IMG/VR virus record: IMGVR_UViG_3300029156_000010
Span: 1-35,034 of that record
From: a virus
Direction: 5' to 3' (one strand)
Length of the DNA: 35,034 bases
Numbering within the stretch: the stretch's first letter is position 1; every line of letters begins with the position of its first letter. Positions 5,736 through 35,034 of this stretch are shown here, piece by piece. A model generated the notes under the pieces. The model was not told the DNA's origin. It searched no databases and worked only from the letters and a program-made list of their open reading frames with translations. A program made the position numbers and the translations under genes.

Positions 5736-6118
5736 GGGTTTAAGTCCTTTGTTACCATTGTATATTTTTGTTCATGTTTTTGAAAATTAAATTTTTCTGC
5801 GCGATTTATAACCGCCTGCATCTCTGTGAAACCTATAAGGGTCTTGAACCCCATGCCCATAGCTTCCAAAACAACACACTCGATACATTCGTCTAAAGCC
5901 TCGGTTCTTGATTCTTTATCAATGTTCGGGTTGTATATAATGCTTTCGATAAGGCAAATAGAACTATCAGTCTGGTAAAGAAACGCCGCTGCAATGTTGT
6001 CAACGATGAATCCTACATCTGGATAGCTATGATTTGGAGGTGGTTTGACCCCATGAGACTGCCACCACCCTTCAAACTGGTCAAAGTCATCTTCTCTGTA
6101 TCTACGTGCGCCGATCAT
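5723..6118 (-). CDS. GNAT-like (acetyltransferase-fold) protein in the slot between the tail hub and the needle/ejection genes.
   Basis: 131 aa. RYREDDFDQFEGWW, AAAFLYQTD, LEAMGMGFKTL and RAEKFNFQK follow GNAT strand/helix order. The canonical R/QxxGxG/A loop is not obvious. Confidence 0.45.
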   Translation of the reverse strand: MIGARRYREDDFDQFEGWWQSHGVKPPPNHSYPDVGFIVDNIAAAFLYQTDSSICLIESIIYNPNIDKESRTEALDECIECVVLEAMGMGFKTLIGFTEMQAVINRAEKFNFQKHEQKYTMVTKDLNPWDL

Positions 6119-9078
6119 GATGTCCCAAAGTTGTTGACTGCTGAGTATTTTCGGAGAGTCTTTTTGACTCCGACCTCTAAAGCAATGTTAGAAAGGCTAT
6201 ATCCTTCGCCAAATGTATTCAAATGAGTTTGACTGTCTTGAAATCTGAATCTAAGGCTTGTGCACTTTTGCTGCGTCATGTGAGTCTTAAATTCGTACAA
6301 AGGGTACCCTCCGCCATAGCCAAAAGATGAATCATCGGAACCATATGGGGACGTGTCTCCATAAGCCTGGATATTATATACATCACCAATGTCGATAGTT
6401 GCAAACTGTGAGAAGTTAGGATTGAAATCATACCCGATAGCCACTTCCATTTTGTGGTCTGACTTGTAATCACCTAAGAAAATCATACGGTAAATACGCT
6501 GGAACCCCTGCATTTGAGCCATGGAGATCCATCCAGTAGTGATTTTCATTGAAATGGGTAGGTTGCCATCGGTAAATGAATCGTTTTCTTTCCATACCTG
6601 ACCGTCAGAGCGAAGATATACGAATCTTCCATCCCATACATCGGAATCTTCTGCTGGTTGGTTTGTGAATGTGCCCCACTGGTTAAAGTAGTAATCGTAC
6701 ATTAAGGTCGTACCTTCTTCAGTAACGTATCGAATCTGGTTAGTATCTGGAACAGATGCACCTGAAGAAATGGTTAATCCGTTAAAGCCTTCCACTCGGT
6801 CGCCTATGTATTGAACCTGTAGAGATCTATTTATAATGTATATGCCCTTTGATGACTTGAACATGATACCATCTGGGGTTTGCTCTACCGAGTTAGGGTC
6901 TACACAACCCGCGTCAGTGGTGATCAATTGAGCATCTCCATAATCAGAGCCACCGCCTGCACTGTTTGGTCCGTCTCCAGAGATGAAGAACACCGCTTGG
7001 CTCTTGAAAAGCAAGAGGTTTGAATCAAGTACAGCCAAAGCAGTAATCGGGCCGCCTTCAGCATCAACACGGTCGCCAAATTCGCTAACAAACTCCACTG
7101 GCAGCCCAGCTTCGCGCTCTTTTGAGTATGCGTAAGTAAGTTGGTCAGGCAATCCAGCAAGAAAGACTCTGTTTTTATACGTAACAACCAAAGAAGAGGA
7201 CGGGGGCGCAGTATTTTCAAAGATTCCGCCAGTTGTATAGAGCAAATCGTTTGTGATAATCGTTTCATCCGACAACGTGTCAGTGAAATTCAAAGAATCT
7301 ACATCCGTGTCATTTAAAAGCGGTGCTATGATGGATGTCACGCGGTAATAATTGGTGCCATCGGCTGTGGTTCTGTAAACAACAAGACGAACTGGAGCGC
7401 GGTTGTCTCGCTTGGCAGTAAGTCTCAATGTAGGGATGGTAATATCAACACTCTGCGATGCTCCTCCTCCAGATAAGACCAATTGCTCTGCAATAGATGG
7501 GGCTGATCGGTGAATCTGACCTAAATTGTCAGTCCATTCGTAACAAATTTGATATGATCTTGTTCCATCTGACAAAGATCCGCCTGCTGCTTGAGCTGTG
7601 AACGTCGATCCTTCTGGAAATAAATGGAAATTGTGTTCTGTCACGCTTACGCCGTCATAAGATTGAAGGATCCCGCCCACAATATGAAGTTGACCAAGCT
7701 GCGCGTTTTGAAATTTGTTTTCGCTGGAGAAATCTAGGGAAGTGGCGAAGATGCCGAACGTAGAGAAGATCTCGCTGTCCTCTGTATCAATAGAAGTCTT
7801 TTCTTGGTGGCCAAATAGGAAAGTACTAGGACCAATTTGGGGCACTTCAGTCAATAATGAGTTGCCAGAGTGATCTCCAGAGGTACCGTATGACATTTTT
7901 GCAACGATGTTACCCTCATTTGAGACAGTGAAGTAGGTAGATTGGAACTGACTGACGTGTACTACGTTCACATAACATAGATCATTGAAGATAAAGACCT
8001 TGGACGCAAGCCCAACGCTTCTTTTAAACACTCCAAGGACTGAAAACGATCCAGTGATGTCAATTGTACTGGTTTGGATCAAGTAATCCTGCGTTTCAGC
8101 GTTAGAAATCGTATACCAGAGCTGCATCTGGTTACCCACAACACATCCAGTCATGTTTACAACATCCGCAATCGTTTCAATAACCGTAACCGGAAGCAAT
8201 TCAGCTAGAAGGAAGTTATATACAGTGACTGCAATTTCATCTGAGGCATTCGAGAAGGAAATCCATACATTTTGATTTTCGTCAGTGGTGATGAAAAGAG
8301 CGTTTGTAGCGTTTTGGGGTATAAAAGTAGGGGCAGAAATAACAAATCCGTCCGTGATTGTTCTTACGCTGACCGTGCTCGTATCATCATGGTACGCAAC
8401 AAATTGACGATCGCCAACAAGCACTACATCATAATTGTTTGAAGCATTCATGTCATTTGTGAATATAAAAGGCCCTGCGATGTCTGAAGGGGTGTTCTTA
8501 GACACATACTGATATCGAAGTGAGGTGTCACCGGCTTCGGTGTACCAAATAACCAAGAAGTCACCGAGTTTGGTTACTTTAGGTGCTGACGCGTCCACAG
8601 ATAGCTGCTTATCGAACACGTAAACAGTTCCGAACTGCTGGTCTATAACAGAGAAACGAACGCCGCCACGGTCATCCTCCCAAGCATAACAAGTAATGTT
8701 ACCCAAAGAGTCGCAACTTACGTTGTTTTGATCATATCCGTTCTTGATAATGGGTGCATCCTTGGCAATTACAGATACAACGTTTCCTTTTTCGACCCAT
8801 GAGCGGTTAGTTTTCCCGTAGGAATACATTTTTTTGCCTGTGTAGAGGTTTAATTCATCGTTATATATGCCAATAGCTTCCCCGGCTTCGATTTCACCAC
8901 CACCTGTAATGGTTTTGGGCAGTGTTTCGTATCCAAATCGCTTGTTAAGAGCCCCTGCTTTTGTAAATACAGCATTTTCAAGCTCTAAAAGTTCAGCAGG
9001 CGTGACAAGCTTTTCATCTTTCTTGGTGTTGATACCGCTTGTCATCGACACATTGACTGTTTGGCGCATTAAAGGCAT
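6115..9078 (-). CDS. Large tail hub / nozzle-type structural protein (987 aa).
   Basis: It is the longest ORF, beta-rich, with repeats that suggest a propeller. It has an ATGA overlap with the next gene. The call rests on position after the adaptor and fibre genes; no enzymatic motif was seen. Confidence 0.5.
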   Translation of the reverse strand: MPLMRQTVNVSMTSGINTKKDEKLVTPAELLELENAVFTKAGALNKRFGYETLPKTITGGGEIEAGEAIGIYNDELNLYTGKKMYSYGKTNRSWVEKGNVVSVIAKDAPIIKNGYDQNNVSCDSLGNITCYAWEDDRGGVRFSVIDQQFGTVYVFDKQLSVDASAPKVTKLGDFLVIWYTEAGDTSLRYQYVSKNTPSDIAGPFIFTNDMNASNNYDVVLVGDRQFVAYHDDTSTVSVRTITDGFVISAPTFIPQNATNALFITTDENQNVWISFSNASDEIAVTVYNFLLAELLPVTVIETIADVVNMTGCVVGNQMQLWYTISNAETQDYLIQTSTIDITGSFSVLGVFKRSVGLASKVFIFNDLCYVNVVHVSQFQSTYFTVSNEGNIVAKMSYGTSGDHSGNSLLTEVPQIGPSTFLFGHQEKTSIDTEDSEIFSTFGIFATSLDFSSENKFQNAQLGQLHIVGGILQSYDGVSVTEHNFHLFPEGSTFTAQAAGGSLSDGTRSYQICYEWTDNLGQIHRSAPSIAEQLVLSGGGASQSVDITIPTLRLTAKRDNRAPVRLVVYRTTADGTNYYRVTSIIAPLLNDTDVDSLNFTDTLSDETIITNDLLYTTGGIFENTAPPSSSLVVTYKNRVFLAGLPDQLTYAYSKEREAGLPVEFVSEFGDRVDAEGGPITALAVLDSNLLLFKSQAVFFISGDGPNSAGGGSDYGDAQLITTDAGCVDPNSVEQTPDGIMFKSSKGIYIINRSLQVQYIGDRVEGFNGLTISSGASVPDTNQIRYVTEEGTTLMYDYYFNQWGTFTNQPAEDSDVWDGRFVYLRSDGQVWKENDSFTDGNLPISMKITTGWISMAQMQGFQRIYRMIFLGDYKSDHKMEVAIGYDFNPNFSQFATIDIGDVYNIQAYGDTSPYGSDDSSFGYGGGYPLYEFKTHMTQQKCTSLRFRFQDSQTHLNTFGEGYSLSNIALEVGVKKTLRKYSAVNNFGTS

Positions 9079-12465: not shown

Positions 12466-13704
12466 TTACGCTAGTTGAATGTTTCCGTTGTAGCCTGGAG
12501 CGTTACACTGTAGCTGACCGTAGTAGCCGTAGCGAACTTCCACACCATCGGATGATGCTTGACGCAACATTTGTAGACCATCGGTATCGATGACTCGAAC
12601 TGCTTTACCCATGGAGCAAAGCTTGAAAGTGCTTAATTGCACCATGAAAGCTCTGTCAGATGGACAGTTTTGATCAGGGATTACGTTGATCGGGCCTTTA
12701 GGACCGTTCACGAGAATACCGCGGAAGCCAATTTCTGGGTTCACTTTAAGATCTACATATTGCAATTTAGACTCCAAAGCTTTCTCAAGAGCTGCATAAC
12801 GATCGTAAGACATGAATGCGTGGTCAACTTTACCACCTTCACGTGCTACTCGGTTTGCACCTTCAATAAGGGCTTCTTCAATTGGATCGCCTGAACCATC
12901 GTAACGAATTCCGCCTAAGCGAGTCGTATCTACAGAACGGTCAACACCAAAGAAAGGAGTTGCGGTTGGAACTAAGTTCGGGATCCATGCGCGTAGACCA
13001 GAGGTCTTAAGTGCGAATGGAGAAGCGGTATCCTGACGGTCACCTGCGACGAACATTGTATCACCTAGCGCAAGGCCGGTAACGGTGTTCAGTACAACGT
13101 TGACTGTGAAGGTACCTGCTGAACGATCAATCGTTTGGATGATTGCTTGAGAACCAGCATCGCGTAGTGCGCCTGTGTTTTCAAATTCAGCAAAGACCAA
13201 TACCTGGCCTACTTCGAAGTTAGTGATTGAATTTGGATCAGTCAAAACAACGGTCTGAGTTGCTAGGTCGGTTGCAGCACCAATGGTACCGATTCCGCCG
13301 AAGCCTGTTCCGTATAGTTCGATTGCCAAAGAACGGGTTAAAGTGTTGATTGCGCCGTCGATTTCGGTTGTGGCAGCTTCCATAAAGGCATTTTCGTTAC
13401 CTTTTGAAGCTTCCAAAGTTTCGTTGTCGATGGTTGCAATTGAATAATCTTTTACACGAGTCAAAGTGAATTGATCGATTAAAGAGTTAGTGACCTGTCC
13501 ACGAGCTTGTGCTTGCGCAAAGTTCGCTGAACGTCCTTGAGGGTTGCCGTAAATCAATGGAACGGGTTTATTACGTCCACGGAATTCGGTTGATTTTGAT
13601 ACAAGTGCCAAGAACGGGTTGTCTTGATACACCATGTTTTCAACGCGTTGATCTGTATAATGTTCTTTCAGAGCAGCGTCGAAGGAGACCATATCTAAAG
13701 CCAT
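12466..13704 (-). CDS. Major capsid protein (412 aa).
   Basis: The size fits, and the gene follows the scaffold gene. It has a good SD (AAGAAGG) and its own downstream terminator. The N-terminus MALDMVSFDAALKEHYTDQRVENMVYQDNPFLALV is typical of phage coat proteins. Confidence 0.8.
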   Translation of the reverse strand: MALDMVSFDAALKEHYTDQRVENMVYQDNPFLALVSKSTEFRGRNKPVPLIYGNPQGRSANFAQAQARGQVTNSLIDQFTLTRVKDYSIATIDNETLEASKGNENAFMEAATTEIDGAINTLTRSLAIELYGTGFGGIGTIGAATDLATQTVVLTDPNSITNFEVGQVLVFAEFENTGALRDAGSQAIIQTIDRSAGTFTVNVVLNTVTGLALGDTMFVAGDRQDTASPFALKTSGLRAWIPNLVPTATPFFGVDRSVDTTRLGGIRYDGSGDPIEEALIEGANRVAREGGKVDHAFMSYDRYAALEKALESKLQYVDLKVNPEIGFRGILVNGPKGPINVIPDQNCPSDRAFMVQLSTFKLCSMGKAVRVIDTDGLQMLRQASSDGVEVRYGYYGQLQCNAPGYNGNIQLA

Positions 13705-15169: not shown

Positions 15170-17047
15170 TCACACCCCATCAAGTGGTAATAAATTGCTG
15201 GTAGGGTTCTGTTCTGGAACCGCTATCGGTTGTTCTTGTGCCTGCTGCGCTGCAATTGCTGCCGCGGCTTCAAGTTCTGCTGCCTCTATCATGGCTTTGT
15301 TTTGATTCATGAACTTCTGCAATAGGGCAAGTTTGTCCTCTGGGACTTTGTTCATTTTGGCCTGTAGATAAGCTCTCTGTGTATATTCAATGTTGTAGGT
15401 TAGATCCATGTAAGGTTCTGGGGAGGTGTAGCGCCCTTCCTCTATCATACCTTCAATGATTTCTTTCAAGATCTCGATACTTGCTGTCTTGTTATCTACA
15501 TAAGATTCAATGTCAGGGAAATCTAACAAATCAAGAGCGTATGCTTTATCGATGTATCCTGCCTGGGTTAATTCTTGAATGTGTTGCAATCTACCTTGTG
15601 GAGTTTTTGGCAGTTGGCTGACAGGGAAGGCTGTCATAACGAACTTATCATCTTCCAAGTCCACATCTTCCCATTTAATGGTTTCGATGAATTTCTTGCC
15701 TTTAACTTTTACTTTTAGATCATTGTCGTCTTGCTCATGAAGGTCACGGCTCATGTCAATGATGATTTTAGATGCGTCTAGGAACATTTTTTCGTATCGC
15801 TGGGCTGTCAGTGCAAAGCGTTCTGACTCGATATCGTTGTATTCACGAATAGCCACACCTGCATCAAGGCCAGATGGCTTCTTACCTGTGGATGAAAGCT
15901 GGTTAATGCCTACGTTTTCAAAGGCTTTGTTGTAAAGGTTCTCTAAGTGTTGGTAAACCTCTGGGGACATTGCTGGAGGGGTTACCGCTTGAGGGGGTGT
16001 GATGTTGAATTTAACTACCCCACCATCTAAGTTATTCAGATGCTGAGTATTTACCCCACTTGAGTTTTCGACCAACCATTTAGGGTGACACATGAGGTGC
16101 ATAGCTTTTTGAATGGTTCTGAGAAGTTTGTTAATCTCAATTTGAATGCCTTTGATTTCCTCTGGGATGCCTGCGCCATAAAAGCCAAGAACTTTGTCGC
16201 ACCACCTGAAAAACACAAACGGAAAGTATTCTTTGTCGTACTGCTCTTCAAACAATGTAGCAGTGCTGATTACGATTGCATGGTGGCCGTCGGATGCCCC
16301 ACCCCCACTTTTTAGATGCCATGCCTCTGTAACCTTTACTAGGTCAGCAGATGATTTGCTTGATGTGTCTCCGTCCACACCGCCTTCTGCTTGCTTGATT
16401 TCCGTGCGATACTTTGGAAACATTTCGTACAAAACGTCTCGACTGATGTACTTAGTTTGAAAGAGTTGTTGGGGGGACCCATACATGCCATCTGCTTGAT
16501 CTACGATGATTTCGTCAATGATGACGCGTTCGATTTCGATTTCGCCTGTGGAGTCGTTTCTAATGAATTTTAAGCAGCCTGTACCGAAGATTTCACCATC
16601 TTTAAAGGATTGTTGGGCTTTTGTGTACATGTCTTGAGATTCAAAGACACCTGCAATATATTTAGATAGTTTCTTGGCTCTGCTCTGCTGTGAGTAGTCG
16701 CCTTTTTCGGTTAAAAAGAGTGGGCGGGGTTTGTTTTTAGCTATTTTTGATTCTGCTGTGTCGACAATGGACTTGATTACGTTAAGTGTTACGCCTGTAT
16801 TTTTGGCGGATGTTTGAGAGGTTGGCTTTTGAACGCCATATAAGCCCTGAAAGGCTTCATTACTGTACAATCTTAAATGTTGGCGGTTTCGATTGATTCG
16901 ATATACCTGCTCTTGATTGATTAACTCTACAATGCCGTTGATATCGGCAAACATCTCTTTGCCTTTTGAGTGCCACCACTGATTTTGAATCTTTGTGGTT
17001 TTTCGTTCTGGATTGACTTGTTTTGTAGTTACTTTTGGTATTGCCAA
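15170..17047 (-). CDS. Portal protein (625 aa).
   Basis: The size fits, and it lies downstream of TerL. The C-terminal tail is Ala/Gln-rich (AAELEAAAAIAAQQAQEQ), as in many podovirus portals. Confidence 0.8.
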   Translation of the reverse strand: MAIPKVTTKQVNPERKTTKIQNQWWHSKGKEMFADINGIVELINQEQVYRINRNRQHLRLYSNEAFQGLYGVQKPTSQTSAKNTGVTLNVIKSIVDTAESKIAKNKPRPLFLTEKGDYSQQSRAKKLSKYIAGVFESQDMYTKAQQSFKDGEIFGTGCLKFIRNDSTGEIEIERVIIDEIIVDQADGMYGSPQQLFQTKYISRDVLYEMFPKYRTEIKQAEGGVDGDTSSKSSADLVKVTEAWHLKSGGGASDGHHAIVISTATLFEEQYDKEYFPFVFFRWCDKVLGFYGAGIPEEIKGIQIEINKLLRTIQKAMHLMCHPKWLVENSSGVNTQHLNNLDGGVVKFNITPPQAVTPPAMSPEVYQHLENLYNKAFENVGINQLSSTGKKPSGLDAGVAIREYNDIESERFALTAQRYEKMFLDASKIIIDMSRDLHEQDDNDLKVKVKGKKFIETIKWEDVDLEDDKFVMTAFPVSQLPKTPQGRLQHIQELTQAGYIDKAYALDLLDFPDIESYVDNKTASIEILKEIIEGMIEEGRYTSPEPYMDLTYNIEYTQRAYLQAKMNKVPEDKLALLQKFMNQNKAMIEAAELEAAAAIAAQQAQEQPIAVPEQNPTSNLLPLDGV

Positions 17048-17323: not shown

Positions 17324-18721
17324 TCAATAATCATCTTCTTCCCAAAATGCCTTGGCTTCGTTCTCTTCCATTTTTTCCGCTTCTTTTTCCCACCATTGGT
17401 CTACAGCCTCCACAGAATGAGGTGAAACCGGTTTTTCTATTGGGCGTGAAAGGTAACTGTAACAGAACCTGTACCCATATAGAGCGGCATCTGCCAAGTG
17501 ATTTGGACATGATGCATTTTCAATACGTTTAGACCCTCTGTCATCCCATATTAAGTTTAGCCACTCATTGACAAGATCGTATGTTTCAGACTCTACAAGC
17601 TTGATTACCCCTTGGATAAGGTCACCGTTCATTATCTCAATGAAGTCACTTTTACCTGTTTTGTCAGCAGCTACCCATGGAACATTATGACGGCGGCGCA
17701 TCTCTTCGACTGCTTGCTTGTTTGCCCCATCAATGATCATTTTCATGGGGTTGTAATCTTTCATCAATACTTTTGCGTACTCAGCCACGTCCGTGACGTC
17801 CATTTTCTTCTTTTTGTACGTGTGAACTATGTACGGATGGGGGTGGTGCTCATTCCAAGCGTAAACAACATAGGCTGTGTCGTCCTCGTATCCAATATCG
17901 CAAGCCACAACGTAGTTCCATTTTGGCATTTCTGGCAATTTTGAAACAAGGTTTCGGGCCTCTTGATATTTGTAGACAAGTTTATCTTCATCAACAACCC
18001 ACTGATTGAGATACATTTGTTTGTAAAGCGGGGTCTCAACAATAGCGGGGTTTTTCTCTATTAAGCCTTTGATTTGCCTATTAACAGGGCCACGGGTGTA
18101 TGGGTTGTCATCAAAAGTCCATTTGTGAACATCCCAACCAGGCTCTTTGCCGGTGGTAACTTCATTGAAAAATGTTTTGGTTCTATTTCCTGTGGTACCG
18201 ATCATGCAAATCGTACCGTTGTAATCAGCTACAGCAGGCTGGAGGGTTTTATATACAATTTCTTTAAGATCCACTCGGAACGATGCACATTCATCGATCA
18301 CAACGAGTTTAAACTTCTGACCAAGGGCTTTTTCTTGCTCTTTTTCACTCTGGTCCATACCTACGCAGTAAATAATAGATCCGTTTGCGAAGGTGACTGT
18401 TAATTCGTTTTGATTAAATTTTACTTTTATTTTAAAGCGGCGGGCGATGTCTTTGAAAACATCTTTAAACATAATTCTTTTGGCTGAGGCGCTTGTTAAA
18501 GCTACATACAGACAGGAAACGCCTGGATTTTCCAGAGCTTCTTTAAAAAGATACAACCCCATGCCATAAGATTTACCAGCACGTCTTGAACACTGCGCTG
18601 CCTTAAGGGTTGAAGGGTTGTTTATGAATTTTGTCTGGGTAGGAAAAGAATCACGAAGAAGATCCACTGTTTTTTCAGCAGCGATATACCTCTTTATGAT
18701 TGCTTTTTCTTTTCGATTCAC
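17324..18721 (-). CDS. terL: Terminase large subunit.
   Basis: It has a Walker A-like motif (CSRRAGKSYGMG) and a Walker B motif (KFKLVVIDECASF). The C-terminal half is nuclease-like with conserved acidic residues (VACDIGYEDD, MIIDGANK). The size is 465 aa and the gene lies upstream of the portal gene. Confidence 0.9.
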   Translation of the reverse strand: MNRKEKAIIKRYIAAEKTVDLLRDSFPTQTKFINNPSTLKAAQCSRRAGKSYGMGLYLFKEALENPGVSCLYVALTSASAKRIMFKDVFKDIARRFKIKVKFNQNELTVTFANGSIIYCVGMDQSEKEQEKALGQKFKLVVIDECASFRVDLKEIVYKTLQPAVADYNGTICMIGTTGNRTKTFFNEVTTGKEPGWDVHKWTFDDNPYTRGPVNRQIKGLIEKNPAIVETPLYKQMYLNQWVVDEDKLVYKYQEARNLVSKLPEMPKWNYVVACDIGYEDDTAYVVYAWNEHHPHPYIVHTYKKKKMDVTDVAEYAKVLMKDYNPMKMIIDGANKQAVEEMRRRHNVPWVAADKTGKSDFIEIMNGDLIQGVIKLVESETYDLVNEWLNLIWDDRGSKRIENASCPNHLADAALYGYRFCYSYLSRPIEKPVSPHSVEAVDQWWEKEAEKMEENEAKAFWEEDDY

Positions 18722-24231: not shown

Positions 24232-24801
24232 ATGAGTTTATACGCAAAATTAATTACAATACAAAAGCAAGTCAGTGGTTTAAAAAAGGATTCTACTGGA
24301 CATCGATATAACTATGAATCACTCGATTCAATTATTCAGTTATTACACCCAAAATTAAAAGAACAAAACTTGGCTATTATGCATACAGTTGAGCCTTTAG
24401 GTAACAATGAGTCAGTCTGCGTGACCACTTTGTTAAACCCTGAAGGGGAAATGATTCAATCTAAATGCCCGATCGGTGATGTATCTAAGATCTTGGCAAA
24501 GGGGAATATCATGCAGGGCATGGGGTCAGCGATAACCTATGCCCGCAGATATAATATCAAAAACCTGTTCAATCTTTACAGTACGGACGATGACGCAGCC
24601 ATTCTAGATCATAATCCACTTTCTAAAAATCAAGAAAAAGAGATTTACCAACTACTTAAAGAGCTTGAAGGTGTAAAAACTTTTGATCAGAATGCTTTTT
24701 ACGGATGGTTAGAAACGGACGACGTAACAACCCTTTCAGAGTCTAAGGCAAAACAAGCCATATCTTTCATGAGAACAAAGAAAGTGGCAGGTTCTAAGTG
24801 A
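24232..24801 (+). CDS. erf: ERF-family single-strand annealing protein.
   Basis: Three segments parallel P22 Erf: LYAKLITIQKQV, YNYESLDSIIQLLHPKL and GSAITYARRYNIKNLFNLYSTDDD. The SD is AAGGAGAG. Confidence 0.85.
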   Translation: MSLYAKLITIQKQVSGLKKDSTGHRYNYESLDSIIQLLHPKLKEQNLAIMHTVEPLGNNESVCVTTLLNPEGEMIQSKCPIGDVSKILAKGNIMQGMGSAITYARRYNIKNLFNLYSTDDDAAILDHNPLSKNQEKEIYQLLKELEGVKTFDQNAFYGWLETDDVTTLSESKAKQAISFMRTKKVAGSK

Positions 24802-25460
24802 TTGGCGAACGTGTAAATGTAATCCAAGGTTCAGATGAATGGCACCGGCTTCGGCTTGGTGTCATCACTGCCAGTAAGTTGCAAAAATGCTTTACTGGGA
24901 AACTAGCTATAAGCAAAGCAGGGTGTAAAACTTTGGCAAAAGAGTTAGCTGCTGAACTTGTTTACAAGAAAAATGAGGAAATCCCGCAAAACTTTTCAAC
25001 ATATGCCATGGACAGGGGCAACTTGTTGGAACCAGAAGCCGTAGAGACAATTGCTGAAATGGTTAAACAAGACTCTCCAGAATTAATTTTAAAGCCTGGA
25101 GCTTTTTATTTAAACGACTTGATCAATGTTGGAGCTTCTCCAGATGGTGAATTTTTTGGCCCCGAAAAAGTTATTGATATGGGCCTTGAAGTTAAATGCC
25201 CACTACCCAAAGGACATTTGGAGTACCTTCTTCAGTGCCAAGAGGAAGAAAGGGAAACTCCTGTAGAGCATTATGCTCAAGTTCAGCTTAATATGATGCT
25301 GACTGGAGCTAAAAAATGGCTTTTTGCTTCATATTGCCCTGGAGCAGTAATGCACCTGGGATACCAAGAGCGAGACGAAGAGTTTATTTCTTTGATTATG
25401 CTAGTGGTTGAATCAGTTAACAATCAATTAAACCATTTCAGACGTGTTCTGGGGGTCTAA
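24798..25460 (+). CDS. YqaJ-type (lambda Exo-like, PD-(D/E)xK) recombination exonuclease.
   Basis: The N-terminus is QGSDEWHRLRLGVITASK, and later motifs are SPDG and LEVKCP. The GTG start overlaps the erf stop. Confidence 0.85.
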   Translation: MIGERVNVIQGSDEWHRLRLGVITASKLQKCFTGKLAISKAGCKTLAKELAAELVYKKNEEIPQNFSTYAMDRGNLLEPEAVETIAEMVKQDSPELILKPGAFYLNDLINVGASPDGEFFGPEKVIDMGLEVKCPLPKGHLEYLLQCQEEERETPVEHYAQVQLNMMLTGAKKWLFASYCPGAVMHLGYQERDEEFISLIMLVVESVNNQLNHFRRVLGV

Positions 25461-29726: not shown

Positions 29727-29972
29727 ATGGACGATCAAGACAAAGCTGTTTTGGACCTGTACTACTGGCAACGCGGAGGTGACAGTTCGAGCTTCACCTC
29801 CATGTTGTACAATCTTTTAATGAAAGCTGATTCACGGAACAGCGCAAAGCTCGCTTTGGGATTTCGTGAACACTGGATCGCCCTTAAAATGTGGCAATCA
29901 GCAGAAAAAGAGGGTGACGACCTCTTTGATTTATATAGAGAAAAGGGAGTGATCCCAAAAGAGAAAAAATAA
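29727..29972 (+). CDS. Hypothetical protein (81 aa), the last gene of the early unit.
   Basis: Its stop at 29970-72 abuts the stop of the converging minus-strand gene. Confidence 0.6.
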   Translation: MDDQDKAVLDLYYWQRGGDSSSFTSMLYNLLMKADSRNSAKLALGFREHWIALKMWQSAEKEGDDLFDLYREKGVIPKEKK

Positions 29973-30362
29973 TCAATTAACCGAAAAAGGCATGTCGTCA
30001 AGATCGTCTAATTTTTCTGATTGGTAGTTGTCAAACATTATTTCAGCTACCTTTCGGAAAGTTTGGCGGTTTTCTGTTCCGCTTCCTTCAAATTTCTCGT
30101 GACATGTCGGGCAATGGGGTACCAGATTGCCATATTCCTGCTTATTTGCCCCACCCATGCCTTTTGCTTTAACATGGCTGGCATGGACAAGGTAATCTCC
30201 GTACTTATCGACTGAGCCCTCGTTTCGGCACTCATGATCTAGTTTCCAACCAACACATTTGTGTCTACGAATCCAATGTGCATATTCTGGATGTTGCCAA
30301 TACGGCTTTTTCTTTGATTTCTTTTTCTTCTTACCTTTAAAAAACGTTTTTACTTGAGCCAC
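29973..30362 (-). CDS. HNH/NinG-like putative endonuclease (about 129 aa from the GTG).
   Basis: HASHVKAKGMGGANKQEYGNLVPHCPTCHEKF has an H..H..G.G..(D/E)..vP.C..CH..F pattern. I prefer the GTG at 30362, preceded by GAGGGGGG, over the overlapping ATG at 30398. Confidence 0.55.
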   Translation of the reverse strand: MAQVKTFFKGKKKKKSKKKPYWQHPEYAHWIRRHKCVGWKLDHECRNEGSVDKYGDYLVHASHVKAKGMGGANKQEYGNLVPHCPTCHEKFEGSGTENRQTFRKVAEIMFDNYQSEKLDDLDDMPFSVN

Positions 30363-30702
30363 GAAACCCCCCTCGCTTTGAAAAGTAGTCAATAACATCG
30401 TCTACGTTATCCACAATCAACGCTATGGCCCCTAAACCATTGGCCATGTGATGAAATTCTAATTGCTCTTTGCTGGCCACGCCCCCTGGCTTCTTCACTT
30501 CAATTCCAAGAAAGATTCCGTCGGGGAGTATGCCCATTATATCAGGTTTTCCCTTGTTGGTTGTTTGATCGCCCTTGTTTCTGGGCTTGGCTCTGGATTG
30601 TCGGTCTCTCCAGCAGTAAATTCCTGCTTTTTGCAGAAAATCTAGGATGTCTTTTTCGACTCCACTCTCTGTTACTGGCCTTCTGATTGATGCTCCGCTT
30701 TT
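30337..30702 (-). CDS. VRR-NUC domain nuclease. The boundaries given are the open frame, and the true start is unresolved.
   Basis: TESGVEKDILDFLQKAGIYCWRDRQ..GKPDIMGILPDGIFLGIEVKKPGGVASKEQLEF fits the VRR-NUC pattern (helix, PD, ExK, Q). The only ATG/GTG/TTG in the frame is at 30537, inside the domain. Confidence 0.75.
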   Translation of the reverse strand, partial: KSGASIRRPVTESGVEKDILDFLQKAGIYCWRDRQSRAKPRNKGDQTTNKGKPDIMGILPDGIFLGIEVKKPGGVASKEQLEFHHMANGLGAIALIVDNVDDVIDYFSKRGGFRGSSKNVF

Positions 30703-31085
30703 TTACACTTGATTTGATAAAATTTGCACTTTGATTTGGGTCTTTCTTTGGGAAGGCTGTCTTTGTTGTGCTTGTCGATAAGGTAAATGAAGCCTGTGAT
30801 GCGGCTAGAGTATTCTTTGATCGCCGCGTCCAGTACCTTGAAGTCTTTAAACGTGATGCACTTATATAAGTTCGACCCGCATTCGTAAATTCCCGTGTCC
30901 ATGCCCGCGGTGGGGTCCACGGTTTTCCTGTAGTGGGGTGGAATTGGGATGAAATCATCGACCACCGTCGATTTTTGCCGACTTGCGCAGTTGCTCATTC
31001 CAATCATCACGAAACTTAAGATCGTCAACTTCTTTGCGATACTCTTCAAGCTGCTTTTTTTGCTTGAGGGAAAGGGTCTCGACAT
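30672..31085 (-). CDS. Secreted or lipid-anchored protein, a candidate o-spanin (137 aa from M24 of the ORF).
   Basis: It starts inside the i-spanin candidate in another frame. It has a signal-like KKLTILSFVMIGMSNC and then a proline-containing DDFIPIPPHYRK. The lipobox is non-canonical (N at -1), and the mature part is unusually long at about 105 aa. Confidence 0.4.
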   Translation of the reverse strand: MSRPFPSSKKSSLKSIAKKLTILSFVMIGMSNCASRQKSTVVDDFIPIPPHYRKTVDPTAGMDTGIYECGSNLYKCITFKDFKVLDAAIKEYSSRITGFIYLIDKHNKDSLPKERPKSKCKFYQIKCKKAEHQSEGQ

Positions 31086-31230
31086 CGTTGAACCTTCGTT
31101 GCTGACGCCTGAACGATTCAAGTAATGATTCGTGTGATTTGGTGAGCTTGCCATCCTTCTGTCCTTTCTTGTACATCCATACGTAAATACCTATATTGGA
31201 AAGAACGATTAACGCTATGGCGTACCACAT
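30955..31230 (-). CDS. Candidate i-spanin (91 aa).
   Basis: It has an N-terminal TM (WYAIALIVLSNIGIYVWMY) followed by a charged coiled-coil. It lies directly after the holin candidate. Confidence 0.55.
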   Translation of the reverse strand: MWYAIALIVLSNIGIYVWMYKKGQKDGKLTKSHESLLESFRRQQRRFNDVETLSLKQKKQLEEYRKEVDDLKFRDDWNEQLRKSAKIDGGR

Positions 31231-31232
31231 GG

Positions 31233-31433
31233 CTATTTGCTTTTTGCGAACCCGCGGGAAATTCCGTATCCCATGGCAGCCAAAGCAGACCCTACAAATC
31301 CTGCGACCTGTAAAACCACTCCACCATCGGCAAAAGCACCGCTAGCGATGACCATGCCTACGATACCAGCGATAGAAGCCATCCAAAATTCAGTTGTTTT
31401 GTATCCTGGTTTAATGTTTTTCTGTGTTTCCAT
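31233..31433 (-). CDS. Holin candidate (66 aa, two TM helices).
   Basis: The two hydrophobic segments are FWMASIAGIVGMVIASGAF and VVLQVAGFVGSALAAMGYGI. The C-terminus SRGFAKSK is basic. Confidence 0.65.
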   Translation of the reverse strand: METQKNIKPGYKTTEFWMASIAGIVGMVIASGAFADGGVVLQVAGFVGSALAAMGYGISRGFAKSK

Positions 31434-31806
31434 TGTTTTTTCCTTCTTCGAATAGATGATAAACTAACGCAGCATCGTCCTTGTTCAAACTGGTTGTGCG
31501 CGGTCCTTTTCTAAGTATCAAGTATATCCCTGATTTTTCTTTTCGCAAGAACAAAACTTTCTCGCTTAGATCCGCGGGGTTGTAAGTGTATATCTCATTT
31601 ATGACGCGCTCCAGATAACGCACTCCATTTGTACCCGACCTAAAAAAAAGATCCATCGTCACTTCATTTCTTTCGATTTGCATTACAATTAGATCATCTT
31701 GGCAATACTTGTCCGCGATATAGGCGCAGGTTTCTAGCATTTGACGTATAAATAGAGATGTTTTTTTTAGGTCATCTTTTGCTTTTTGGTTTGCCGGTAT
31801 AATCAT
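31411..31806 (-). CDS. Hypothetical protein (131 aa) between the endolysin and the holin.
   Basis: ORF with an ATGA overlap with the endolysin stop. Confidence 0.6.
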   Translation of the reverse strand: MIIPANQKAKDDLKKTSLFIRQMLETCAYIADKYCQDDLIVMQIERNEVTMDLFFRSGTNGVRYLERVINEIYTYNPADLSEKVLFLRKEKSGIYLILRKGPRTTSLNKDDAALVYHLFEEGKNNGNTEKH

Positions 31807-32249
31807 ACCATTTTATATTTCTCAAGCATTTCCATGGACAATTTCTTGTATCTTTGAATTCCATCATCATCTTTGTAGCAAATCCAACGACCATGACCTT
31901 TTCTGTCATCCGCATGAACCCCACCAACAATGTTTTCTTGTTTTTTCCACCACCAATCACGATAAACACCGAGCCCGCCAAAGCCAAAACGCTCCGCTGC
32001 AAAGTATAAATCCATCGGCCTAACGCCTGGGGCTATTAAATCTGCTGCAATGCCGCGCCCGTGCTGGCCTGAATCATTGGGCCTATACGCGGATGTGACA
32101 AAAATTGGCACCCCAAGATGGTCTCTTAATACATCAAGCTTTAAAAGAAGTCCTCTTTTCATCTTCGATGGGTCGCCCCAATTATCTACCTTTGAATCGG
32201 GTCTAAAGTACCTTATCCCCGTCCACTGAATCATTCCCTTGGTTCGCAT
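31803..32249 (-). CDS. Endolysin, Peptidase M15-type (zinc D-Ala-D-Ala carboxypeptidase-like fold).
   Basis: LDVLRDHLGVPIFVTSAYRPNDSGQHGRGIAADL and later GGVHADD fit the H-x6-D ... H zinc-site pattern of M15A/VanY-like peptidases. The SD is GGGGGTGAG. Confidence 0.85.
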   Translation of the reverse strand: MRTKGMIQWTGIRYFRPDSKVDNWGDPSKMKRGLLLKLDVLRDHLGVPIFVTSAYRPNDSGQHGRGIAADLIAPGVRPMDLYFAAERFGFGGLGVYRDWWWKKQENIVGGVHADDRKGHGRWICYKDDDGIQRYKKLSMEMLEKYKMV

Positions 32250-32662
32250 CGCTCACCCCCGTTCTTAATCTCCAAAGCGCATAACCTTCTGTCATCACCT
32301 GAAAGCTTTTTGTCCTGCTCATTGTCTTTTGACTGCTGAACGGCCTCCATGGTGGTGAATTTTAGATTTATACTTTCTTTGTATTCTTTCAAAGCTTTAT
32401 CTCTTGGAAGCATCTTCGCATCTACAATGTCACCAATCTTATAAGTGAGTAACAGCCAACCGCCAATAAGAAGATACCTAACAATATCCTTAGCCACTTT
32501 AAAAAGGGTTTCTTGATCGAGTCTAAGAACTCTAGTGGTTCCAGATCCCCGCTTACTAGGTGCCTCTTGTGAGTGCTGACTGACTTCTCTATTCCCAGTA
32601 TTTTCGGAACGATCCAGACCTGTTCTGGGTTTCTTTTTTGAACTTTTTCCTCGATCATCCAT
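32231..32662 (-). CDS. Ambiguous ORF (143 aa) with one TM segment. It may start internally, for example at the ATG at 32413.
   Basis: The frame overlaps 32422..32796 by 240 nt. The region 32231-32421 is open only in this frame. Confidence 0.35.
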   Translation of the reverse strand: MDDRGKSSKKKPRTGLDRSENTGNREVSQHSQEAPSKRGSGTTRVLRLDQETLFKVAKDIVRYLLIGGWLLLTYKIGDIVDAKMLPRDKALKEYKESINLKFTTMEAVQQSKDNEQDKKLSGDDRRLCALEIKNGGERCEPRE

Positions 32663-33973: not shown

Positions 33974-35034
33974 TGTGGCATTTTCACTTCCGCATCAATG
34001 GACAAACCTTGTGGAGGTATTCCGCCAGTCAACGTCCCAAACCTTACTTGTAAATAATCGTTTTGTGCGATTGTATTGTTGGTACAAATTAAAGTTAGCG
34101 TGGTTTCAGTTGTAAGTGTACCACTTGCAATGGACACACCTGATTTCCATATTTGTATAGCAATAGAACCACCTCTTGCAAGACCCTGTGTAAAAGTAAC
34201 TTCCACAGATTCAACGCGACCCCCAACCATTGTTCTATGGAAGTTTATGTATTCTGGGTAAACAATGCTTGGGGTTACGTCAACCCCTTCACCAAGTATA
34301 CTTATATTCAAAAACTGGTTTTGGATCTCCACGGCGCCTAAAACAGAGGCCACCGTTCTTTGAGAAATTTCTTTTGTAGTAGGGTTTCTAACAAGCAAAG
34401 ATGGTGCAGTATCGAAAGTTGGTGGGGCTTGCTCAAGTATTACGTCAGGAGCATCCAAAACAAGGTCAAGTCCAGCCCTATAAGTTGCGTTACCCGTGTT
34501 TGACACCATTAATATGTCGCCCGACTCGGTGTAGTAATCTATGTTTCCGCTATCAAGCCCAACCGTAAAAGAGTTTGTAGTAGTTGAGAAAATTTGAAGC
34601 TCACCACCGCCAACAAGTTCCACCTGTCTATTGGGAACTGTGCCATTTGCATTGTAAAGAGTGTCAACCGACCCACCTCCACCGCCGACATTGCCAGGCT
34701 GGATAAGGTAAAATTTACCATTACTGGGGTTTAAGAAAGCTACAACCACATGGTTTCCCGTACCTAAAGGAGTTAAGTCCCCATCAAATAACGCAGCATC
34801 AAAAGTTATATCGTTTGGCGAATCGTTGTTTATATACATGTTGTAGCGTTGACCAGCATTAGACCCCCACCTTGTGTCGGATGCCTGCCATCCAATAACC
34901 AAGCCGCCACTGTGGCCTGAATTTAACGAAAGAATTTTCCCATTCAGCACATCCACGTCAAAAAGATAAGAAGTGTCTGAGTTGCCTACTATATCACCTG
35001 AAAGCACGCGCTCTTGCTTGGTGCCATTGTAGTT
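33970..35034 (-). CDS. Tail fibre protein, C-terminal part of the wrapped gene (same gene as 1..813).
   Basis: The frame is open to the window end. The GTG 'start' at 35007 in the ORF track is internal. A second GGGGG motif (QPGNVGGGGGSVDTLYNANGT) is present, and the C-terminus is beta-rich. Confidence 0.8.
   Translation of the reverse strand, partial: NYNGTKQERVLSGDIVGNSDTSYLFDVDVLNGKILSLNSGHSGGLVIGWQASDTRWGSNAGQRYNMYINNDSPNDITFDAALFDGDLTPLGTGNHVVVAFLNPSNGKFYLIQPGNVGGGGGSVDTLYNANGTVPNRQVELVGGGELQIFSTTTNSFTVGLDSGNIDYYTESGDILMVSNTGNATYRAGLDLVLDAPDVILEQAPPTFDTAPSLLVRNPTTKEISQRTVASVLGAVEIQNQFLNISILGEGVDVTPSIVYPEYINFHRTMVGGRVESVEVTFTQGLARGGSIAIQIWKSGVSIASGTLTTETTLTLICTNNTIAQNDYLQVRFGTLTGGIPPQGLSIDAEVKMPQ
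34936..35034. repeat. Second copy of the 99-bp terminal overlap (same as 1..99).
   Basis: Exact identity with bases 1-99, read directly from the sequence. Confidence 0.95.

Follow-up and report, generated by a model that had tools for sequence, protein, structure and literature searches.

The standalone VRR-Nuc proteins stNUC, saNUC and psNUC are dimers that cut four-way junctions, and their active site comprises an E-PD-ExK motif together with a conserved Gln (Pennell et al. 2014, PMC4103454). Here, we consider a divergent relative from a phage: it is specified by the minus strand of IMG/VR virus record IMGVR_UViG_3300029156_000010, which was analysed over its full length of 35,034 nucleotides (nt; hereafter, the window), and its reading frame contains no ATG, GTG or TTG ahead of the codons for the first two of its four E-PD-ExK residues. 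This arrangement was first described in an inspection of the DNA letters without database searches (the sequence-only reading), which put forward three explanations, namely, initiation at an ATC codon, a −1 slip of the ribosome on a run of six A residues (A6), and a homopolymer indel in the assembly. We find that the gene is best read as a variant of an ordinary one, the canonical start of which would have been lost through a single point substitution.

Two further systems provide points of reference for the way in which such a gene might be translated. In Escherichia coli, infC and pcnB have near-cognate starts (AUU, AUC or AUA), and these are conserved regulatory features. Programmed −1 frameshifting of the dnaX type takes place on A AAA AAG, with a Shine–Dalgarno (SD) element upstream and a hairpin downstream.

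A VRR-NUC frame without a canonical start codon

The minus strand was read directly between 30200 and 31200, and the nuclease frame was translated; all coordinates are positions in the window, and the features are collected in Table 1. Following an in-frame TAA, the VRR-NUC frame stays open for 121 codons, up to a second TAA at 30339–30337. Counted by script, 55 codons separate the upstream stop from the first ATG, GTG or TTG of the frame, which is the ATG of Met56. It is the sole credible coding frame of the window in which more than 30 codons precede the first such triplet: the other frames that exceed this length are antisense or out-of-frame shadows, or else the i-spanin-like frame, the upstream part of which overlaps the holin-like gene. 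The sequence-only reading had reported that no canonical start precedes Met56, and its coordinates and geometry are correct, although the ATG that it took to be the only one is the first of two, the second lying at 30447–30445.

Between the upstream TAA and the GAG codon of Glu12, the first of the E-PD-ExK residues, there are 11 codons: AAA AGC GGA GCA TCA ATC AGA AGG CCA GTA ACA. The upstream open reading frame (ORF) is read through this region in a different register (frame B), where it ends TGT AAA AAA GCG GAG CAT CAA TCA GAA GGC CAG TAA, finishing at 30672. The region presents the A6 run, a GGAG core, the ATC codon and a GTAA junction, at which the GTA codon of the nuclease frame overlaps the stop of frame B.

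The encoded protein

Taken alone, the 121-residue translation scores 17 bits against Pfam VRR_NUC, which is below the gathering score of 23.8; its match to the 'endonuclease' family phrog_93 spans residues 11–107 (8e-20). A phmmer search of 1.84 billion representatives returned 1596 relatives at E ≤ 1e-3. The best 150 of these align from residues 2–14 of the query and possess the N-terminal helix, as do all of the related loci examined; the exceptions among the 150 are the window's own call of 66 amino acids (aa), P0036, which has 666 aa and ten repeated stretches, and P0051, the best stretch of which consists of the C-terminal half only. Most of the 150 are 96–140 aa in length.

The 19 closest relatives were aligned with the window protein (alignment A1; 20 members). 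Nine columns are invariant, and all nine residues are kept in the window protein: Glu12, Leu23, Trp31, Gly51, Asp54, Gly62, Glu68, Lys70 and Gln80. PF08774 is matched by 19 of the 20 members, and the A1 profile matches the solved standalone VRR-Nuc structures 4QBO, 4QBN and 4QBL (7e-8 to 1e-5). An AlphaFold (AF2) model built on A1, with a predicted local distance difference test (pLDDT) score of 87, comprises three helices (residues 12–25, 78–89 and 100–110) and four strands (residues 29–32, 55–58, 64–69 and 93–97). When the model was submitted to Foldseek, the first matches were 4QBL, 4QBN and 4QBO, with TM-scores of 0.6–0.77 for 4QBL and 4QBN, the matches with E below 1e-3.

All components of the active site are present: Glu12, Pro53–Asp54, Glu68 and Lys70 account for the E-PD-ExK residues, and Gln80 is the conserved Gln. 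Glu12 lies 44 codons before Met56. The proposal that the VRR-NUC homology starts well ahead of this ATG is borne out by the extent of the phrog_93 match, by the phmmer alignments of the relatives, which start at residues 2–9 of the ATC-initiated protein, and by the invariance of Glu12, and a protein started at the ATG would indeed be deprived of the N-terminal helix and strand, since the AF2 model places both (residues 12–25 and 29–32) upstream of Met56. The truncation goes further than had been supposed, however: the ATG was thought to fall just before the catalytic core, whereas the catalytic Asp54 is actually two codons upstream of it. The 66-aa product is, therefore, without helix 1, strand 1, Glu12 and Asp54, that is, two of the four E-PD-ExK residues. 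Given that activity requires Glu12, the start of an active enzyme must lie within the 11 codons between the upstream TAA and the GAG.

Judged by its sequence and its predicted structure, the frame encodes a standalone phage VRR-NUC nuclease, divergent from the solved members, and both the fold and the active site of the family can be recognized in it. By analogy with stNUC, saNUC and psNUC, the protein would be a dimer with Holliday-junction resolvase activity.

Probable loss of the canonical start

The nuclease has only distant relatives, the nearest of which (P0003 and L010–L012) are 51% identical to it. A metagenome scan yielded nothing above this level, no relative was found among 185,579 reference genomes, and the 121-aa frame, used as the query of a word-indexed protein search, retrieved a single 38% relative besides the 66-aa call of the window itself. 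At the nucleotide level, blastn of positions 29900–31300 against 50,697 phage records gave no match, and viral contigs queried with the HNH endonuclease and the endolysin of the phage revealed no close phage relatives.

The related loci, by contrast with the window, have ordinary starts: in all of the approximately 20 distinct loci whose contig includes the upstream region, the conserved Glu is preceded at a distance of 2–12 codons by an ATG or GTG. The window's ATC and GTA stand at the two start positions that are used most often. In A1, the GTA column is where six of the 19 relatives begin, two codons before the Glu, and most of the closest relatives are among these six; P0003, P0004, P0006, P0012 and P0015 do so as M-[TNK]-E, and P0010 as V, implying a GTG start, where the window reads V-T-E-S. 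The correspondence is also apparent in the DNA: L012 starts with ATG ACT GAA TCA, whereas L013 starts with GTG ACA GAG and is overlapped by the TGA of the upstream gene to give GTGA, the counterparts in the window being GTA ACA GAG and an overlapping TAA that gives GTAA. For P0005 and P0011 (2 of the 19), it is the ATC of the window that is aligned with their initiating Met, six codons before the Glu. The sequence-only reading had named, as the sign of a simple variant, an ordinary ATG in relatives at the position of the ATC; such relatives exist.

Four-base ATGA or GTGA overlaps are found at six other minus-strand junctions of the genome (6118, 18721, 19737, 31806, 33389 and 33973), that of the large terminase included. 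Their prevalence at the operon junctions of this strand suggests widespread translational coupling. TGA accounts for 19 of the 45 stops in the genome.

Taken together, the relatives' starts in the GTA column, the GTGA of L013 and the overlap style of the genome point to simple start-codon loss by one substitution, which would have been either ATG>ATC at 30687–30685 or GTG>GTA at 30675–30673. In the case of GTG, one G>A change would turn a GTGA overlap into GTAA, such that the upstream stop is kept while the start is destroyed. The alternative history, in which an ancestral ATG at the ATC position underwent a G>C change, is equally simple, and it would explain the presence of GGAG 5 nt upstream. 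Each of the two histories requires a coincidence at the level of approximately 2%.

Proposed initiation at AUC and its alternatives

As to how the gene is translated at present, we see about an even chance that low-level initiation takes place at the AUC codon, yielding a 116-aa protein from a gene whose start was lost by substitution. Ahead of the essential Glu, the only near-cognates of AUG are this ATC and an AGG. The context of the ATC resembles that of a gene start: a GGAG, GAGG or AGGA core lies 4–9 nt upstream of 4% of all ATC triplets, as against 14 of 44 likely gene starts (32%), which represents an approximately 8-fold enrichment over background, and many genes of the phage are preceded by SD-like cores. 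No stable local structure was found over the SD and ATC region by fold computation. Thus, the ATC–GGAG geometry described in the sequence-only reading holds, and it is joined by the alignment of the ATC with the Met of P0005 and P0011; initiation itself would be viable, and it is the reading that we prefer.

In E. coli, AUC supports approximately 1–2% of the initiation obtained with AUG, and Met is inserted (Hecht et al., bioRxiv 10.1101/063800). A full-length enzyme started at AUC would accordingly be made with an efficiency of initiation that is a few per cent of the normal one. The stop of the upstream gene is located 11 nt downstream of the ATC, and ribosomes that finish translating that gene may also feed the nuclease start, presumably through coupling. 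Among the genes of the phage are those of ERF and YqaJ, both for recombination, and a scan of its proteins recognized no other resolvase, which fits a continuing need for the nuclease. A literature search for ATC starts in phages gave nothing relevant, and a scan for promoters and terminators on the minus strand around the locus gave nothing above shuffled expectation.

It is possible, albeit doubtful, that the AUC start is, rather than damage, a working design to throttle a potentially toxic nuclease: a good SD element would be paired with a weak codon, and translation would be coupled to that of the final gene in the late lysis operon, such that the resolvase appears in small amounts and only at packaging.

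Several considerations weigh against initiation at AUC in a gene that lost its start by substitution. If the ancestral start was the GTG at 30675, the pairing of ATC with GGAG becomes coincidental, for which the chance is approximately 2%. No relative above 51% identity, in which the ATC/GGAG or GTAA arrangement might have been conserved, is present in any of the collections searched. The efficiency figures for AUC are from E. coli and may not hold for the host of this phage. Moreover, the ancestral start, translation from AUC and continued expression are all inferred, and an intact ORF is also to be expected of a gene that has been inactivated very recently.

That last possibility is the main rival: the start substitution would have switched the nuclease off, with no further damage as yet, and no functional protein would be made. 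We regard this as unlikely, though it has to be taken seriously. It would account for the observations that the window protein alone, apart from P0036 and P0051, is N-terminally cut among the best 150 of the 1596 relatives, that every relative's locus examined has a canonical start, and that the change is confined to one lineage (one study, two runs); yet all of the invariant and catalytic residues have been kept, and the 121 codons contain neither an internal stop nor a frameshift. The upstream gene would not select against a G>A change at 30673, which leaves it with a stop (TGA>TAA); against silencing, a GGAG stands at ideal spacing from a near-cognate codon that is aligned with start positions of the relatives. 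Silencing would also leave a genome with its own recombination module devoid of any recognizable junction resolvase.

Considerably less probable is reinitiation on the GUA codon by ribosomes that terminate at the overlapping TAA, which would give a protein of 112 aa. The junction is shaped like the GTGA and ATGA overlaps found in L013 and elsewhere in the genome, and its GTA occupies the column in which six of the 19 A1 relatives begin, but GUA presents an anticodon mismatch at position 3 besides the wobble at position 1, and the sole SD-like element in the vicinity, GAAGG, is too close at 3 nt. Initiation on such codons is nevertheless seen, many non-near-cognate codons giving 0.01–1% of AUG initiation in E. 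coli (bioRxiv 10.1101/063800).

A programmed −1 frameshift on U AAA AAA G (30705–30698), which would join the upstream frame-B protein to the nuclease, we consider very improbable. The geometry on which the sequence-only reading had based this proposal stands, in that a ribosome slipping by −1 out of frame B would continue in the nuclease frame immediately beyond the TAA of the latter; nothing further counts in favour of a frameshift. Although the A-site tRNA would re-pair perfectly, slippage leaves UAA as the P-site codon, with a first-position mismatch, making the zero-frame heptamer U AAA AAA a poor one. The A run lacks an SD-like element on its upstream side and a hairpin or pseudoknot 5–9 nt downstream: the fold z-score of 30610–30730 is −0.6, and the nearest stem is approximately 30 nt away. 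Runs of six or more A residues are in any case common, with 51 on the minus strand. The relatives are almost all standalone proteins of 96–140 aa that have their own start, and none is fused in this manner; the N-terminal extensions of the longer ones were considered as possible counterparts of frame B and rejected, as none among the best 150 is similar to it. Furthermore, given its signal-like N-terminus and its position in the lysis cassette, frame B is hard to envisage as a fusion partner of a cytoplasmic DNA nuclease.

Transcriptional slippage at the A6 run was also considered and rejected. Runs known to slip in transcription have approximately nine or more residues, and this one is shorter.

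The start-site variant is known from one lineage only, represented by one study and two runs. The 66-aa product is recorded from three further contigs, namely, JGI 3300029169 (35,059 bp), Logan SRR4039784 (34,965 bp) and Logan SRR4039783 (3,587 bp), and a segment of 71 nt that spans the A run, GGAG, ATC and GTAA is identical in the window and in these three assemblies. L001 is 100% identical to the window across 11.6 kb, whereas L003 (Logan SRR4039783) has one mismatch in 3571 bases, at 32562, which is remote from the start site. An assembly or sequencing error, whether in the length of the A run (A5 or A7 for A6) or in a base of the start codon, is hence the least credible of the explanations, including in the form of the homopolymer indel suggested by the sequence-only reading: homopolymers are error-prone on some platforms, but the A6 junction is the same in all four assemblies, and no run length can create a start codon (the GTG-TAA stays), with A7 merely fusing the nuclease frame to frame B, and A5 shifting frame B into a third register (frame C).

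Genomic context

The window carries a direct terminal repeat of 99 bp (1–99 and 34936–35034) and, therefore, corresponds to a complete, circularly assembled phage genome of approximately 34.9 kb. The same genome has been assembled independently from SRR4039784, SRR4039783 and JGI 3300029169. The plus strand encodes an AAA protein (Pfam) in addition to the recombination module listed in Table 1.

Table 1. Features of the nuclease locus and of the surrounding genome
Feature	Position	Strand	Remarks and basis
Upstream in-frame TAA of the VRR-NUC frame	30705–30703	−	GTG at 30708–30706 directly before it; direct reading
A6 run, proposed −1 slip site	30699–30704	−	Lys-Lys codons of the upstream ORF; direct reading
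GGAG, SD-like core	30693–30696	−	5-nt spacer (CATCA) to ATC; direct reading
ATC, candidate near-cognate initiation codon	30685–30687	−	Six codons before invariant Glu12; direct reading
GTAA junction	30672–30675	−	GTA codon (30675–30673) overlapping TAA stop (30674–30672) of the upstream ORF
GAG, invariant Glu12 of helix 1	30667–30669	−	First E-PD-ExK residue; invariant column of A1
GAT, invariant catalytic Asp54 ('KPDI')	30541–30543	−	Invariant in A1; aligned with PD of 4QBO and 4QBN
ATG, first canonical start (Met56)	30535–30537	−	Start in mechanical ORF list and public gene calls, giving 66 aa
GAA GTG AAG, Glu68-Val-Lys70	30493–30501	−	ExK of the active site; Glu68 and Lys70 invariant in A1
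Proposed full-length VRR-NUC coding sequence	30337–30687	−	116 aa if AUC-initiated; translation, phrog_93 match, relatives, Foldseek
Upstream frame-B ORF, hypothetical protein	30672–31085	−	Start at ATG 31085 (137 aa), with GTG 30964 as a possible alternative
HNH endonuclease gene	29973–30362	−	Weak Pfam HNH and phrog_119 matches; public call of 129 aa
Rz-like (i-spanin-like) protein	30955–31230	−	N-terminal transmembrane segment; phrog_739, weak
Small holin-like protein	31233–31433	−	Two transmembrane segments
M15 peptidase endolysin	31803–32249	−	Upstream of the nuclease
ERF single-strand annealing protein and YqaJ exonuclease	24232–25460	+	Recombination module; Pfam
Large terminase	17324–18721		
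Portal	15170–17047		
Major head protein	12466–13704		

The VRR-NUC gene is placed between the lysis cassette and the HNH gene, and its 3′ end is overlapped by 26 nt by the GTG start of the latter, the context of which is gcgaggggggtttcGTG. An HNH gene, placed before or after, adjoins the VRR-NUC gene in at least two unrelated relatives as well (L008/L009, 5511–6360; L013, 3699–4309).

According to codon usage, the best frame is the i-spanin-like one between 31250 and 31040, frame B between 30950 and 30800, and the nuclease frame between 30680 and 30410. Frame C, which is the frame of a public call of 138 aa (JGI and Logan; 30542–30958, minus strand), was examined as a coding frame and rejected, its codon usage never being clearly the best. 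Frame B contains a hydrophobic, signal-like segment, KKLTILSFVMIGM, which is followed by SNC and is embedded in the Rz-like gene; as a guess, frame B may encode an overlapped o-spanin, the lipobox of which would be atypical (Asn at −1). Neither the protein database nor the viral contigs contained homologues of the frame-B ORF.

Elsewhere on the minus strand, a protein of 987 aa (6115–9078) combines a segment like an internal virion protein (residues 510–752) with one like an amidase (residues 795–915), and it may be a virion-associated peptidoglycan hydrolase. The number of runs of six or more A residues on this strand compares with approximately 19 expected from base composition, an excess of approximately 2.6-fold, and several A8 runs are among them (e.g. 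at 31768, 21352, 19100 and 4744).

Discussion

These observations are of value mainly for annotation. In public gene calls, the locus is represented by a 66-aa fragment, with half of the active site missing, and by a 138-aa ORF that is in the wrong frame and probably spurious; these are to be replaced by the VRR-NUC frame of 116 aa and a different upstream ORF. If initiation at AUC is true, the gene would be a natural phage example of a nuclease throttled at the level of its start codon, which is pleasing rather than surprising, and would be a case on which to test gene finders, which ignore the minor start codons of translation table 11. If, instead, the gene is dead, it illustrates how, within a four-nt GTGA overlap, a change without consequence for the upstream gene may cost the downstream one its start.

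As a protein, the nuclease is like stNUC, saNUC and psNUC (4QBN, 4QBO and 4QBL) in being a small single domain, of about 100–120 aa, with the E-PD-ExK residues and the Gln, and these three provide its best profile and structure matches. It is unlike the solved VRR-Nuc structures in that it is just 22–25% identical to them, does not by itself reach the Pfam gathering score, and is encoded by a gene with no ATG, GTG or TTG start. The locus shares with near-cognate-start genes the pairing of a weak codon with a proper SD element, here ATC with GGAG at 5 nt; it differs from the infC and pcnB type in that it has the appearance of a lineage-specific substitution, and in that AUC is a putative start here. 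With dnaX, the locus has in common only the presence, where two frames meet, of an A-rich run: U AAA AAA is in the wrong register, an upstream SD element and a downstream structure are both missing, and there is no conserved two-product architecture. Overall, we see no new mechanism at this locus; initiation at AUC is a known, albeit rare, phenomenon, the loss of a start codon is ordinary, and what the window adds to the described systems is a new and divergent member of the VRR-NUC family.

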